A DNA stretch of 64,000 nt from Escherichia coli (GTDB lineage: Bacteria > Pseudomonadota > Gammaproteobacteria > Enterobacterales > Enterobacteriaceae), in assembly GCF_050320075.1 (NCBI RefSeq), contig NZ_CP190018.1; one strand, given 5' to 3'. Made by a program: the position numbers and the translations under genes. The notes under the pieces were generated by a model that was not told where the DNA came from, did no database searches, and saw only the letters and a program-made list of their open reading frames with translations. Below, in pieces: positions 9,784 through 50,678 of this stretch; the stretch's first letter is position 1, and the number at the start of each line of letters is the position of its first letter.

Positions 9784-10068
9784 ATGAAAATGGCCAATCA
9801 TCCCCGCCCGGGGGACATTATTCAGGAATCACTGGACGAACTTAATGTCAGCCTGCGCGAGTTTGCCAGAGCAATGGAAATTGCGCCCTCAACGGCAAGC
9901 CGATTGCTGACCGGAAAAGCAGCTTTGACACCAGAAATGGCGATTAAACTTTCCGTGGTGATCGGCAGTTCGCCGCAAATGTGGCTGAATCTGCAAAACG
10001 CCTGGAGTCTGGCAGAGGCAGAAAAAACGGTGGATGTGTCGCGATTACGCCGTCTGGTTACGCAATAA
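9784..10068 (+). CDS. yddM: HTH-XRE antitoxin-like DNA-binding protein (HigA family)
   Basis: 94-aa ORF with a helix-turn-helix ([23 protein letters not shown]); position after adhP matches K-12 yddM. Confidence 0.8.
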
Positions 10069-10778
10069 TAAATATCCTCCGGCATAGCCGGAGGTTTTTC
10101 AAATGCGCCTGTAAGGCTCTGTTACCAGCCGCGCCCTAACAGGCGCATACGATCTGACATTTGCATTCAACTTCGTTACTTACGGCCCGTAAACGGGCTG
10201 CCCGGATATGGAATCGATAACTGCTCCCCCATTTTATCCTCTTCAAGCTGGTGCTTTATGTAGTCCTGTATCTTCGCCGTGTTCTTACCCACCGTATCGA
10301 CATAGTACCCTCGGCACCAGAACTCCCTGTTTCTGTATTTGAATTTCAAATCCCCAAACTGCTCGTAAAGCATCAGACTGCTTTTCCCTTTCAGATATCC
10401 CATAAAGCCGGATACGCTCATTTTGGGTGGGATTTCCACAAGCATATGGATATGATCTGCGCAGCACTCTGCTTCCAGAATCCGTACGCTTTTCCACTCA
10501 CACAGCTTTCTCAAAATACTGCCTATCGCCCTACGCTTCTCTCCGTAAAACGCCAGTCTTCGGTATTTCGGCGCAAAAACTATGTGATATTTACAGTTCC
10601 AGCGGGTGTGCGCTAAGCTCTTTTCGTCCCCCATTGGGACCCCCTTTTGATTTCTTGTTTGACACTTGCAGTTGCCAGACCGCAAGGTGTTTTAACAAAT
10701 CAAAAGGGGTTTTAATAACTGGCTCAAAGCTGAAAGCTTTCCGGAACCCCCAGCCTAGCTGGGGGTTTTCTGTGCACA
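10067..10778 (-). mobile_element. IS200-like element (IS200/IS605 family), copy 1, about 712 bp
   Basis: Shares about 712 bp including terminal hairpins (cctccggcatagccggagg; ccccagctaggctggggg) with an inverted copy at 49967..50678; boundaries inferred from where the two copies diverge from their flanks. Confidence 0.7.
10176..10634 (-). CDS. tnpA: IS200-type Y1 (HUH) transposase TnpA
   Basis: 152-aa product MGDEKSLAHTRWNCKYHIVFAPKYRR with a HIHML HUH motif; the ORF-track start at 10685 is an extension. Confidence 0.9.
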   Translation of the reverse strand: MGDEKSLAHTRWNCKYHIVFAPKYRRLAFYGEKRRAIGSILRKLCEWKSVRILEAECCADHIHMLVEIPPKMSVSGFMGYLKGKSSLMLYEQFGDLKFKYRNREFWCRGYYVDTVGKNTAKIQDYIKHQLEEDKMGEQLSIPYPGSPFTGRK

Positions 10779-10809
10779 AAAAAAATGGCGCTTCTTAAAG
10801 CGCCATTTT
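10778..10809 (-). terminator. Rho-independent terminator after fdnI
   Basis: On the minus strand: aaatggcgc / tttaagaa / gcgccattt followed by an 8-T run. Confidence 0.7.
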
Positions 10810-10830
10810 CAGCTTAAAGTTCAAAAGAGA

Positions 10831-47587: not shown

Positions 47588-47828
47588 GACGACTCCCTTT
47601 GATGAACCGATATTTTTGCTGCTTCACAATGCTTCGCTAAGCGTAATCATCGTTACGCTCTTGTTATAAATGGGAATGGTAATCATTATTTTCTCAAATG
47701 TGGAGCATTTCTTGCCGTTACGACTACAATTTTCTCAATTACTTAACGTATCGTGCCGTTTCGTTTTCCATATATTTACAATTTTATTACCATGGCGGCG
47801 TTTTCCCATTCTTAACTTGGCTTTTTTC

Positions 47829-49931
47829 ATGAAGATTTTTTCCGTCCGACAGACCGTTTTGCCCGCACTGCTTGTCCTTTCCCCCGTTGTTTTTGCCGCT
47901 GATGAACAGACCATGATTGTCAGTGCCGCACCGCAGGTGGTTTCAGAACTGGATACCCCAGCAGCCGTGAGCGTGGTGGATGGCGAGGAGATGCGCCTGG
48001 CAACACCGCGCATTAACTTGTCCGAATCACTGACCAGCGTGCCTGGTTTGCAGGTACAAAACCGGCAGAACTATGCGCAAGATTTACAGCTGTCGATTCG
48101 CGGATTTGGCTCCCGCTCCACTTACGGAATTCGCGGTATTCGCCTGTATGTGGACGGTATTCCCGCCACCATGCCCGACGGACAAGGGCAAACATCCAAC
48201 ATCGATTTAAGCAGTGTACAAAATGTGGAAGTGCTGCGCGGCCCCTTCTCTGCTCTGTATGGCAACGCGTCTGGCGGTGTAATGAATGTCATCACCCAGA
48301 CCGGACAACAGCCACCAACCATTGAAGCCAGTAGTTACTACGGCAGTTTTGGCAGCTGGCGCTATGGGCTGAAAGCAACAGGCGCAATGGGCGACGGCAC
48401 TCAGCCTGGCGATGTCGATTACACCGTCTCAACCACGCGCTTTACGACCCACGGCTATCGTGATCATAGTGGCGCACAGAAAAATTTAGCCAATGCCAAA
48501 CTGGGCGTACGCATTGATGACGCCAGCAAATTAAGCCTGATTTTCAATAGTGTGGATATCAAAGCAGATGACCCAGGTGGGCTAACCGAAGCAGAATGGA
48601 AGGCGAATCCGCAACAAGCGCCACGCGCTGAACAGTACGACACGCGAAAAACCATCAAGCAAACTCAGGCTGGGTTGCGCTATGAACGTAGCCTGAGCGC
48701 ACAAGATGATATGAGTGTGATGATGTATGCCGGGGAGCGAGAAACGACCCAGTACCAGTCAATCCCGATGGCACCACAACTTAACCCGTCGCATGCGGGC
48801 GGCGTGATTACTCTGCAACGCCATTATCAGGGGATAGACAGCCGCTGGACACACCGTGGCGAGCTGGGCGTTCCGCTCACGTTCACTACCGGCCTGAACT
48901 ACGAAAACATGAGTGAAAATCGCAAAGGCTACAATAACTTCCGCCTGAATAGCGGCGTGCCGGAATACGGGCAAAAAGGTGAGTTGCGCCGTGACGAACG
49001 CAATCTGATGTGGAACGTCGATCCCTATTTGCAGACACAGTGGCAGCTGAGCGAAAAACTGTCGCTGGATGCTGGCGTGCGCTACAGCTCCGTATGGTTT
49101 GATTCCAACGACCATTACGTTACTTCGGGTAACGGCGATGACAGCGGTGATGCCAGTTATCACAAATGGCTACCTGCCGGTTCGTTAAAATATGCAATGA
49201 CCGATGCCTGGAATATCTATCTGGCAGCCGGGCGAGGTTTTGAAACGCCGACGATTAATGAGCTGTCTTATCGTGCTGACGGTCAAAGCGGTATGAACTT
49301 TGGTTTAAAACCATCCACCAACGATACAATTGAGATCGGCAGTAAAACGCGTATTGGTGATGGGCTGCTTAGTCTCGCATTGTTCCAGACCGACACCGAT
49401 GATGAAATTGTAGTCGATAGCAGTAGCGGTGGGCGTACGACTTACAAAAATGCCGGAAAGACCCGTCGTCAAGGCGCTGAGCTGGCATGGGATCAACGTT
49501 TCGCGGGAGATTTTCGTGTAAAAGCGTCCTGGACCTGGCTCGATGCGACCTATCGCAGCAATGTTTGCAATGAACAGGATTGTAACGGTAATCGGATGCC
49601 AGGGATCGCCCGTAATATGGGCTTTGCGTCGATAGGTTATGTACCGGAGGATGGCTGGTATGCAGGTACGGAAGCGCGTTATATGGGCGATATTATGGCA
49701 GATGATGAAAATACGGCCAAAGCGCCGTCTTATACTCTCGTCGGCTTATTCACCGGGTATAAATACAATTACCACAATTTAACTGTGGATTTATTTGGTC
49801 GTGTCGATAATTTATTCGATAAAGAATACGTTGGTTCTGTCATTGTCAATGAGTCAAACGGGCGATATTACGAACCTGCGCCCGGGCGAAATTATGGTGT
49901 CGGCATGAATATTGCATGGCGATTTGAGTAA
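47829..49931 (+). CDS. yncD: TonB-dependent outer-membrane receptor
   Basis: 700-aa product from MKIFSVRQTVLPALLVLSPVVFA with a TonB box and C-terminal aromatic residue; the ORF-track start at 47670 is an extension. Confidence 0.9.
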   Translation: MKIFSVRQTVLPALLVLSPVVFAADEQTMIVSAAPQVVSELDTPAAVSVVDGEEMRLATPRINLSESLTSVPGLQVQNRQNYAQDLQLSIRGFGSRSTYGIRGIRLYVDGIPATMPDGQGQTSNIDLSSVQNVEVLRGPFSALYGNASGGVMNVITQTGQQPPTIEASSYYGSFGSWRYGLKATGAMGDGTQPGDVDYTVSTTRFTTHGYRDHSGAQKNLANAKLGVRIDDASKLSLIFNSVDIKADDPGGLTEAEWKANPQQAPRAEQYDTRKTIKQTQAGLRYERSLSAQDDMSVMMYAGERETTQYQSIPMAPQLNPSHAGGVITLQRHYQGIDSRWTHRGELGVPLTFTTGLNYENMSENRKGYNNFRLNSGVPEYGQKGELRRDERNLMWNVDPYLQTQWQLSEKLSLDAGVRYSSVWFDSNDHYVTSGNGDDSGDASYHKWLPAGSLKYAMTDAWNIYLAAGRGFETPTINELSYRADGQSGMNFGLKPSTNDTIEIGSKTRIGDGLLSLALFQTDTDDEIVVDSSSGGRTTYKNAGKTRRQGAELAWDQRFAGDFRVKASWTWLDATYRSNVCNEQDCNGNRMPGIARNMGFASIGYVPEDGWYAGTEARYMGDIMADDENTAKAPSYTLVGLFTGYKYNYHNLTVDLFGRVDNLFDKEYVGSVIVNESNGRYYEPAPGRNYGVGMNIAWRFE

Positions 49932-49966
49932 TTACCTTGATGCCCGGTATTTGCCGGGCATTTAAT

Positions 49967-50678
49967 TGTGCACAGAAAACCCCCAGCTAGGCTGGGGGTT
50001 CCGGAAAGCTTTCAGCTTTAAGCCAGTTATTAAAACCCCTTTTGATTTGTTAAAACACCTTGCGGTCTGGCAACTGCAAGTGTCAAACAAGAAATCAAAA
50101 GGGGGTCCCAATGGGGAACGAAAAGAGCTTAGCGCACACCCGATGGAACTGTAAATATCACATAGTTTTTGCGCCAAAATACCGAAGACAGGTGTTCTAC
50201 AGAGAGAAGCGTAGAGCAATAGGCAGTATTTTGAGAAAGCTGTGTGAGTGGAAAAGTGTACGGATTCTGGAAGCTGAATGCTGTGCAGATCATATCCATA
50301 TGCTTGTGGAGATCCCGCCCAAAATGAGCGTATCCGGCTTTATGGGATATCTGAAAGGGAAAAGCAGTCTGATGCTTTACGAGCAGTTTGGTGATTTGAA
50401 ATTCAAATACAGGAACAGGGAGTTCTGGTGCAGAGGGTACTACGTCGATACGGTGGGTAAGAACACGGCGAAGATACAGGATTACATAAAGCACCAGCTT
50501 GAAGAGGATAAAATGGGAGAGCAGTTATCGATTCCCTATCCGGGCAGCCCGTTTACGGGCCGTAAGTAACGAAGTTGGATGCAAATGTCAGATCGTGTGC
50601 GCCTGTTAGGGCGCGGCTGGTAAGAGAGCCTTATAGGCGCATTTGAAAAACCTCCGGCTATGCCGGAGGATATTTATT
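49967..50678 (+). mobile_element. IS200-like element (IS200/IS605 family), copy 2, about 712 bp
   Basis: Inverted counterpart of 10067..10778 with the same terminal hairpins; its end abuts the mcbR stop codon. Confidence 0.7.
50111..50569 (+). CDS. tnpA: IS200-type Y1 (HUH) transposase TnpA
   Basis: 152-aa product MGNEKSLAHTRWNCKYHIVFAPKYRRQVFYREKRR; differs from copy 1 at several residues. Confidence 0.9.
   Translation: MGNEKSLAHTRWNCKYHIVFAPKYRRQVFYREKRRAIGSILRKLCEWKSVRILEAECCADHIHMLVEIPPKMSVSGFMGYLKGKSSLMLYEQFGDLKFKYRNREFWCRGYYVDTVGKNTAKIQDYIKHQLEEDKMGEQLSIPYPGSPFTGRK

Follow-up and report, generated by a model that had tools for sequence, protein, structure and literature searches.

Two diverged IS200 copies in inverted orientation at intrinsic terminators of an Escherichia coli chromosome

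A 64,000-nucleotide (nt) stretch of an Escherichia coli chromosome (NCBI RefSeq assembly GCF_050320075.1, contig NZ_CP190018.1; the whole stretch is referred to here as the window) carries two IS200-like insertion sequences (ISs) in inverted orientation on either side of a 39-kb segment that holds fdn, nar, and an rhs island. Copy 1 lies between yddM and fdnI (site 1), copy 2 lies between pqqU (=yncD) and mcbR (site 2), and each copy touches the stop codon of one of its neighbors. Does this arrangement constitute a structural unit, and what has placed both elements at the ends of genes? We consider it very likely that these are two independent IS200 insertions of the E. coli IS200C group, from two sublineages 3.8% apart, each at the T-run 3′ end of an intrinsic terminator, and that the pair represents two unrelated insertion events and not a structural unit.

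Two IS200 copies of separate sublineages

Both copies correspond to a conserved 713-nt block that runs from TTGT... to ...ATATTTATT, as defined by eight complete copies from six genera. In each 713 bp, tnpA is the sole open reading frame (ORF), apart from overlapping frames on a mechanical ORF list, and tnpB is absent. Each TnpA matches the Pfam Y1_Tnp domain over its full length (PF01797, “Transposase IS200 like”; E-values of 8e-37 and 4e-38) and harbors the HUH motif H61-I-H63 together with Y125, the catalytic residue, the Y125F substitution of which leaves Salmonella IS200 TnpA catalytically dead (PMC4513863). The Rfam model STnc490 (RF01405, the IS200 5′ untranslated region [5′UTR]/art200 family) matches element nt 12 to 135 of both copies with 146 bits against a gathering score of 56. 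ViennaRNA folds the left end into a GC-rich hairpin, AACCCCCAGC-TAG-GCTGGGGGTT, with a fold energy of −19 to −22 kcal/mol, which in IS200 has been described as a bidirectional terminator (PMC4513863). A long stem in the 5′UTR buries the Shine–Dalgarno (SD) sequence AAGGGGGT at element nt 134 to 141, and the right-end hairpin, CCTCCGGC-TAT-GCCGGAGG, folds at about −16 kcal/mol. The two ends, TTGTGCAC... and ...ATATTTATT, do not form an inverted repeat. A Y1 TnpA alone, subterminal hairpins, and the absence of terminal inverted repeats place both copies in the IS200 group of the IS200/IS605 family, with a predicted regulatory anatomy of the Salmonella type that comprises a terminator hairpin at nt 12 to 34, an SD-sequestering stem at nt 69 to 138, and the art200/STnc490 region. 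The STnc490 model matches the tnpA-sense strand in both copies (Table 1), and the STnc490/art200 RNA is described in the literature as antisense to the tnpA 5′UTR (PMC4513863); this would mean either that the Rfam seed is oriented as the mRNA or that the structure, being near-palindromic, gives the higher score in the sense orientation.

Assignment to IS200C itself applies to copy 2 only. Its TnpA is sequence-identical to WP_000526135.1, which PGAP names “IS200/IS605-like element IS200C family transposase” (strains 144, 98222, A3176, and M45), and DNA 100% identical to copy 2 is annotated as IS200C. Copy-1 TnpA is WP_000502112.1, to which PGAP gives the generic name “IS200/IS605 family transposase” and not IS200C.

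A repeat search of the window returned one inverted pair, 10067-10784 and 49961-50678, 718 nt long, 96% complementary, and 39,176 nt apart. When 10067-10778 (reverse-complemented) is compared with 49967-50678, 27 differences are found in 712 nt (96.2% identity, 3.8% divergence), distributed as a single difference in the 144-nt 5′ region (49966-50110 versus 10635-10779; left end and 5′UTR), 22 in the 459-nt ORF, and four in the terminal 109 nt; the longest stretch without a mismatch between the copies measures 96 bp. An earlier note on this DNA, made from the sequence alone, had described two diverged IS200-like copies in inverted orientation, and the Pfam and STnc490 matches, the inverted-pair match, and the 27 differences bear this out. 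The pair did not arise as a repeat by chance. The TnpA proteins are identical at 148 of 152 positions and differ by D3N, L27Q, A28V, and G31R, just as quoted there. With 18 synonymous and 4 nonsynonymous codon changes between the two tnpA genes, the Y1 transposase of both copies is under purifying selection. The low divergence of the 5′ region indicates much stronger constraint, or conversion, on the hairpin/antisense-RNA region.

Copy-1-type elements, identical at 712 to 713 of 713 positions, are found at at least eight other chromosomal sites, seven of which are in one assembly; these sites include purL, pgsA, htpX, paaY, dsbA, and hrpA. Copy 2 is the common IS200C type, and 1,299 records hold a copy that is ≥99% identical to it. 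The window copies therefore come from two separate, co-resident multicopy sublineages, and neither is a recent copy of the other, which strengthens the earlier conclusion from residue differences that they are not a recent duplication.

The boundaries are fixed to within 2 nt by matching empty alleles. We built the sequence expected at each site with exactly 711 nt removed and searched the complete E. coli genomes with it. As a perfect 90-mer, the empty allele of site 2, ...GGGCATTTAATT followed directly by TAACG..., was matched in up to 271 complete genomes, and that of site 1 (...GCAAT-A8-TGGCGC...) in up to 118. Since both sites have alleles that equal the occupied sequence minus exactly 711 nt, both copies are simple 711-nt insertions, and the coordinates of the earlier note, which gave about 712 bp for each copy, are right to within 1 nt. 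A TT dinucleotide stands on both sides of a 709-nt core in 27 of 27 complete copies examined, so that the cleavage points are ambiguous by 2 nt; the 711-nt difference with its flanking TT fits either no target duplication, with TT being part of one end, or a 2-bp TT duplication. The empty sites of K-12 and of PK13/HYM1 were set aside as references in favor of the exact-flank alleles, as they are inconsistent with the window (a 7-A run at site 1; C in place of the window A in the site 2 spacer).

The yddM-fdnI spacer, which corresponds to window positions 10067-10811, varies in a further respect. In K-12 it holds 2.1 tandem copies of a 178-bp unit with repetitive extragenic palindromic (REP) sequences and a copy of the terminator-like hairpin; one such unit is found in strain EC7 and none in PK13. 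This spacer is thus variable for two unrelated kinds of hairpin-associated repeats.

Near-full-length IS200 is found in 2,063 of 5,426 complete E. coli genomes (38%), at 10,742 places and with as many as 35 in a single genome. An element occupies site 1 in 303 of the 5,426 genomes and site 2 in 139, and both copies are present in the same arrangement as in the window in at least strains 144 and CFSAN061763, the former being 99.7 to 99.99% identical to window positions 6236-51563. Two registers occur at site 1. In the first (the window and locus L063), 8 T precede the IS and ATTGCG follows it; in the second, shifted by 1 nt, 7 T precede the IS and T-ATTGCG follows it (strain 98222, locus L054, and GCA_011751345.1, locus L067). 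The shifted register holds either sublineage, an IS200C-type element in 98222 and a copy-1-type element in L067. The shifted copy of strain 98222 was considered as proof of one independent second insertion, a reading undone by the copy-1-type element in the same register. The alleles compared point to a history of at least two events at site 1, which may have been insertions, or an insertion plus conversion between resident copies. The yddM/fdnI terminator thus appears to be a repeatedly used site.

Table 1. Coordinates of the two IS200 copies, their parts, and the adjoining terminators and stop codons in the window
Feature	Coordinates	Strand	Remarks
IS200 copy 1	10067..10779	−	Sublineage with TnpA MGDEK...; outer bounds, conserved block; net insert 711 nt; ends ambiguous by 2 nt (TT at each junction)
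IS200 copy 2, IS200C type	49966..50678	+	TnpA MGNEK...; outer bounds, conserved block; same 2-nt ambiguity
tnpA copy 1	10176..10634	−	152 amino acids, intact; HUH motif H61-I-H63, catalytic Y125
tnpA copy 2	50111..50569	+	152 amino acids, intact
Left end/5′UTR copy 1	10644..10767	−	Rfam STnc490 match; art200 antisense RNA region
Left end/5′UTR copy 2	49978..50101	+	Terminator hairpin 49978-50000 and SD-sequestering stem; Rfam STnc490 match
Right-end hairpin copy 1	10076..10094		CCTCCGGC-TAT-GCCGGAGG; terminator-like in both directions; then TTTTT on + strand, the direction of yddM transcription
Right-end hairpin copy 2	50651..50669		Terminator-like in both directions; then TTTTT along mcbR transcription
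fdnI intrinsic terminator	10780..10811	−	Hairpin and 8-T run directly 5′ of copy 1 left end; insertion target
pqqU (=yncD) intrinsic terminator	49939..49967	+	ATGCCCGG-TATT-TGCCGGGCAT, then TTAATT; directly 5′ of copy 2 left end; insertion target
yddM (higA-type antitoxin) stop TAA	10066..10068	+	Overlaps junction TT at copy 1 right end
mcbR stop TAA	50678..50680	−	Overlaps last T of copy 2 conserved block

Terminator context of the insertions

The left end of each copy directly follows an intrinsic terminator, in line with the earlier note, which had placed these ends next to the fdnI terminator and a terminator-like hairpin of yncD. The fdnI terminator, TGGCGCTT-TAAG-AAGCGCCA followed by T8, folds at −17.3 kcal/mol, and the pqqU terminator, ATGCCCGG-TATT-TGCCGGGCAT followed by TTAATT, at −17.4 kcal/mol. 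These energies are from ViennaRNA RNA folds, which were used in place of a consensus terminator scanner that reported neither of these two terminators nor the left-end hairpin of the element.

To place these two sites in the context of other genera, one genome per species was scanned for the left-end hairpin as an exact 25-mer, which returned 46 loci from Citrobacter, Kluyvera, Edwardsiella, Kosakonia, Phytobacter, Entomohabitans, and other genera. With a threshold of ≤10 nt, a perfect-stem hairpin ends 0 to 8 nt before the IS in 37 of 42 unique left flanks, and the other five carry imperfect hairpins, read by eye, for a total of 42/42. The same hairpin test in those loci is positive at 6.4% of random positions and after 8.1% of T≥5 runs. 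The left end lies 0 to 8 nt past the stem in 41 of 42 flanks, and the T-run is always on the top strand of the IS. The same terminator context recurs at 16 further sites in E. coli genomes and in assemblies with E. coli-like gene content, where the element follows the terminators of uhpT, tonB, plaP, carB, purL, pgsA, htpX, paaY, dsbA, hrpA, and others. In every surveyed case, the IS and the terminated gene point the same way. The inverted orientation of copies 1 and 2 follows from this, since the IS takes the orientation of the terminator and the two terminated genes lie on different strands, fdnI on minus and pqqU on plus.

Odaert et al. are said to have proposed in 1998 that terminator-like (rho-independent) stem-loops are hot spots for IS1541, with a reported 8/14 sites. 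The 42/42 sites in other genera, together with about 18 E. coli-type sites (the two of the window included), are a stronger association than this figure. According to a 2025-26 preprint, ISs have an excess of terminator-like sequences immediately upstream of them, which is greatest for IS200/IS605 (bioRxiv 10.1101/2025.07.22.666184).

Contact with a stop codon, the second feature to which the earlier note drew attention, is confirmed at both right ends, where the TAA of yddM and that of mcbR overlap the junction TT, with an IS-to-stop distance of 0 to 1 nt. Neither gene is altered in length: K-12, PK13, and strain 144 share one YddM protein accession, and K-12 and strain 144 each have an mcbR of 666 nt. 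Stop-codon contact with a gap of 0 to 2 nt recurs at narP, adeD, yciA, sbcB, and a major facilitator superfamily (MFS) transporter gene. The right end comes to lie on a stop codon because these terminators lie between convergent genes, with the T-run abutting the opposing TTA/TCA. Stop-codon contact is thus a recurrent by-product of the left-end target, with no separate targeting rule.

On this reading, each copy inserted at the distal end of a T-run, with its tnpA-sense strand co-oriented with fdnI (minus) or pqqU (plus). By the family paradigm of IS608 and ISDra2, transposition would proceed by TnpA-catalyzed, single-strand “peel and paste,” and the AAAA 5′ of the left-end hairpin would pair with the T-rich target, as in IS608. 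The host hairpin and T-run may be seen to resemble the right end of the element itself, which consists of a hairpin and ATATTTATT. After insertion, transcripts of yddM and mcbR would terminate at the right-end hairpin with its TTTTT, which would make the insertions nearly neutral. That the elements are competent to transpose is suggested indirectly by identical copies at many sites, polymorphic occupancy, and intact ORFs and ends.

Target preference, survival, and rearrangement

From IS608 and ISDra2, recognition of hairpins at the element's own ends and of a 4- to 5-nt target 5′ of the left end is established. Hairpin-guided target choice is not an established feature of the IS200/IS605 family. 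The earlier note had explained insertion at hairpin-rich gene ends by structure-guided targeting as known for the family: the hairpin association is real here, but what is known of the family is confined to own-end hairpins and the short target. We nonetheless put forward, tentatively and as something short of probable, that IS200-group TnpA may choose its target by structure, with the host terminator hairpin and T-run captured as a mimic of the right end. IS200 would then be a “terminator-homing” transposon, the bidirectional end hairpins of which restore termination for both neighbors, so that a nearly dormant element could persist at high copy number and at almost no cost.

An alternative that we regard as unlikely, yet well worth weighing, is that selection acting after insertion has produced the terminator and stop-codon context: IS200 would insert at any T-rich tetranucleotide, and the sole copies to persist would be those that land behind terminators between convergent genes, where they are sheltered from read-through and cause no disruption. 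Selected IS200/IS1541 insertions within genes, namely hisD984 and Yersinia inv and caf1A (PMC4513863, PMC2806898), are in line with this, as they indicate that a hairpin is not strictly needed; so is the position of many E. coli IS200 sites between convergent genes, the most neutral location, and the preprint cited above likewise reads upstream terminators as promoting persistence (bioRxiv 10.1101/2025.07.22.666184). Selection for neutrality alone, however, would allow either orientation and any intergenic position, whereas the register is tight (0 to 8 nt past the stem in 41/42), and the IS top strand carries the T-run in every case. Moreover, of the T≥5 runs within these loci, only 8% have a hairpin before them, and the terminator of site 1 has received the IS in two registers that differ by 1 nt. 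On sequence grounds, the fixed register and orientation favor hairpin recognition over loss of other insertions.

Several points nevertheless weigh against our account of two independent insertions at terminators. Hairpins were called with a simple stem finder, and the set of 46 loci samples one IS200 clade in about a dozen genomes. Genomic surveys of this kind cannot separate target preference from survival of harmless insertions, and the pairing of guide and target is drawn by analogy, as is the role of the right end as a terminator. IS200 is, in addition, notoriously dormant (PMC4513863), and the family has a reported lagging-strand bias (PMC5027513), which at most one member of an inverted pair within one replichore can fit, as the top strands of such a pair cannot both be on the lagging-strand template.

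A second alternative, which we consider very improbable, makes the pair a functional unit, either a composite transposon with the 39-kb fdn-nar-rhs segment as its cargo or a pair of repeats that drives an inversion or is left over from one. The earlier note had seen in the pair a standing substrate for inversion, and two homologous 0.7-kb inverted repeats are formally a recombination substrate; use of the pair for inversion is possible in principle but is unsupported. As that note had itself recognized, the gene order is that of K-12: in a whole-segment comparison, collinearity of the window with K-12 MG1655, in reverse orientation, extends from bdm past curA, and strain-specific insertions and deletions are the only differences, so that the segment and both flanks are uninverted. 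A query for the inversion junction, yddM-IS-pqqU (reverse complement), was covered by 0 of 5,426 complete E. coli genomes, the best coverage of 69% being the uninverted part. The sites are independent in their occupancy (303 genomes for site 1, 139 for site 2), each has its own precise empty allele, and the copies differ at 27 positions with ≤96 bp of perfect identity. Single-strand transposition also needs a left and a right end on the same strand, a configuration that inverted copies lack (inferred from PMC5027513). Independent occupancy, the lack of any inversion junction among these genomes, and K-12 collinearity thus speak against both a composite transposon and an invertible segment.

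Finally, that the shared sequence is a native intergenic repeat of the REP/bacterial interspersed mosaic element (BIME) type, a reading to which the one or two 178-bp REP-containing units of the K-12 yddM-fdnI spacer lend some color, has practically no chance of being correct and is refuted by the intact transposase under purifying selection, by precise empty sites, and by the K-12 REP units having no sequence in common with the element; of the two outcomes that the earlier note had said would overturn its reading, boundary mapping thus returned an IS and not a REP-type element, and the copies, with 27 differences, are not identical.

Neighboring features and comparison with known systems

Two copies of IS1 lie in the same window. 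The first (5468-6235, 768 bp) has no target duplication and is flanked by GGGTTTCG and GAAAATTCA. To its left are gadC, gadB, digH, and dosC, the last truncated after ~119 codons, and to its right is the region upstream of bdm; relative to K-12 and strain 144, the window lacks 3′ dosC, dosP, ddpXABCDF, and osmC (~9 kb). This loss looks like an IS1-mediated adjacent deletion. The same IS1-to-bdm junction is found in no complete genome of the collection, and IS1 lies next to dosC in only one sampled record, H76, in which the match ends at the right-hand end of the IS1. The second IS1 (16157-16924) lies within yddG with an 8-bp target duplication, CGTTTATC, and is also present in strain 144, which is without the first IS1 and its deletion and instead has a 1.56-kb (1,562-bp) deletion adjoining the second IS1. 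The two IS1 copies are in opposite orientation and only 95% identical; together, they bracket IS200 copy 1 and fdnGHI, and the bracketed segment is not inverted relative to K-12.

Within fdnG, a SECIS_3 element (14781-14839, minus strand; 84 bits) is found, where the selenocysteine codon of formate dehydrogenase-N would lead one to expect it; the mechanical ORF list splits fdnG for this reason. In the rhs region, the Rfam model group-II-D1D4-2 matches 37202-37310 (minus strand) with 48 bits against a gathering score of 36, a feature unannotated in strain 144. It lies between an ISAs1 (H-repeat) remnant and a pentapeptide-repeat gene downstream of the 1,403-residue RHS core protein and probably represents a piece of a group II intron within the rhs/H-repeat island. 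A 127-nt direct repeat (36937-37063 and 43676-43802), 83% identical, flanks the rhs core/ISAs1 region; these repeats are presumably H-repeat/ISAs1 ends.

First described in 1983, IS200 is well documented in its E. coli forms, its regulatory left end, and its dormancy (PMC4513863, PMC5435999). The founding member, IS200 of Salmonella enterica, shares with the window copies a size of about 707 to 711 bp, a single 152-residue Y1/HUH TnpA with Y125, and the absence of terminal inverted repeats, as well as the left hairpin at ~nt 12 to 34, the SD stem at ~nt 69 to 138, art200/STnc490, and the right-end hairpin (PMC4513863). In contrast to IS200 paralogs of Salmonella and Yersinia, which are essentially identical within a genome (PMC5435999), the chromosome described here carries two sublineages 3.8% apart. 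With respect to IS200C, copy 2 has an identical TnpA, and copy 1 departs from copy 2 at 27 nt and 4 amino acids. IS1541 of Yersinia pestis and Y. pseudotuberculosis, likened here by its description, is a close IS200 relative with STnc490 expression (PMC4513863), and one copy lies between pheL and pheA, i.e., after the attenuator (PMC3082878); it differs from the window copies in its host and in its 30 to 60 copies per genome.

More distant members of the family allow a further comparison. IS608 and ISDra2 resemble the IS200 copies in having a transposase of the same fold family and subterminal hairpins, and their insertion likewise takes place 3′ of a short sequence, which then adjoins the left end. 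They insert with no target duplication, and the copies described here fit either that or a 2-bp TT duplication. Unlike the IS200 copies, which lack tnpB and follow a hairpin and T-run, IS608 and ISDra2 carry tnpB and recognize TTAC or TTGAT, with no reported need for a target hairpin. Outside of the family, class C group II introns are found just downstream of intrinsic terminator stem-loops, as reportedly described by Robart et al. in 2007; the likeness is one of niche only, as these are RNA-based retroelements and IS200 is a DNA transposon. Set against these systems, the finding is real but ordinary and already known, since a position just past a neighbor's terminator is the usual one for IS200 in enterobacterial genomes, and only the completeness and the register precision of the terminator association are mildly new. 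It carries little weight as a discovery, given that PGAP annotates IS200 automatically and that the element is found in 38% of complete E. coli genomes; what it offers is a quantitative restatement of an under-cited rule, i.e., that IS200-group elements lie immediately 3′ of intrinsic terminators.

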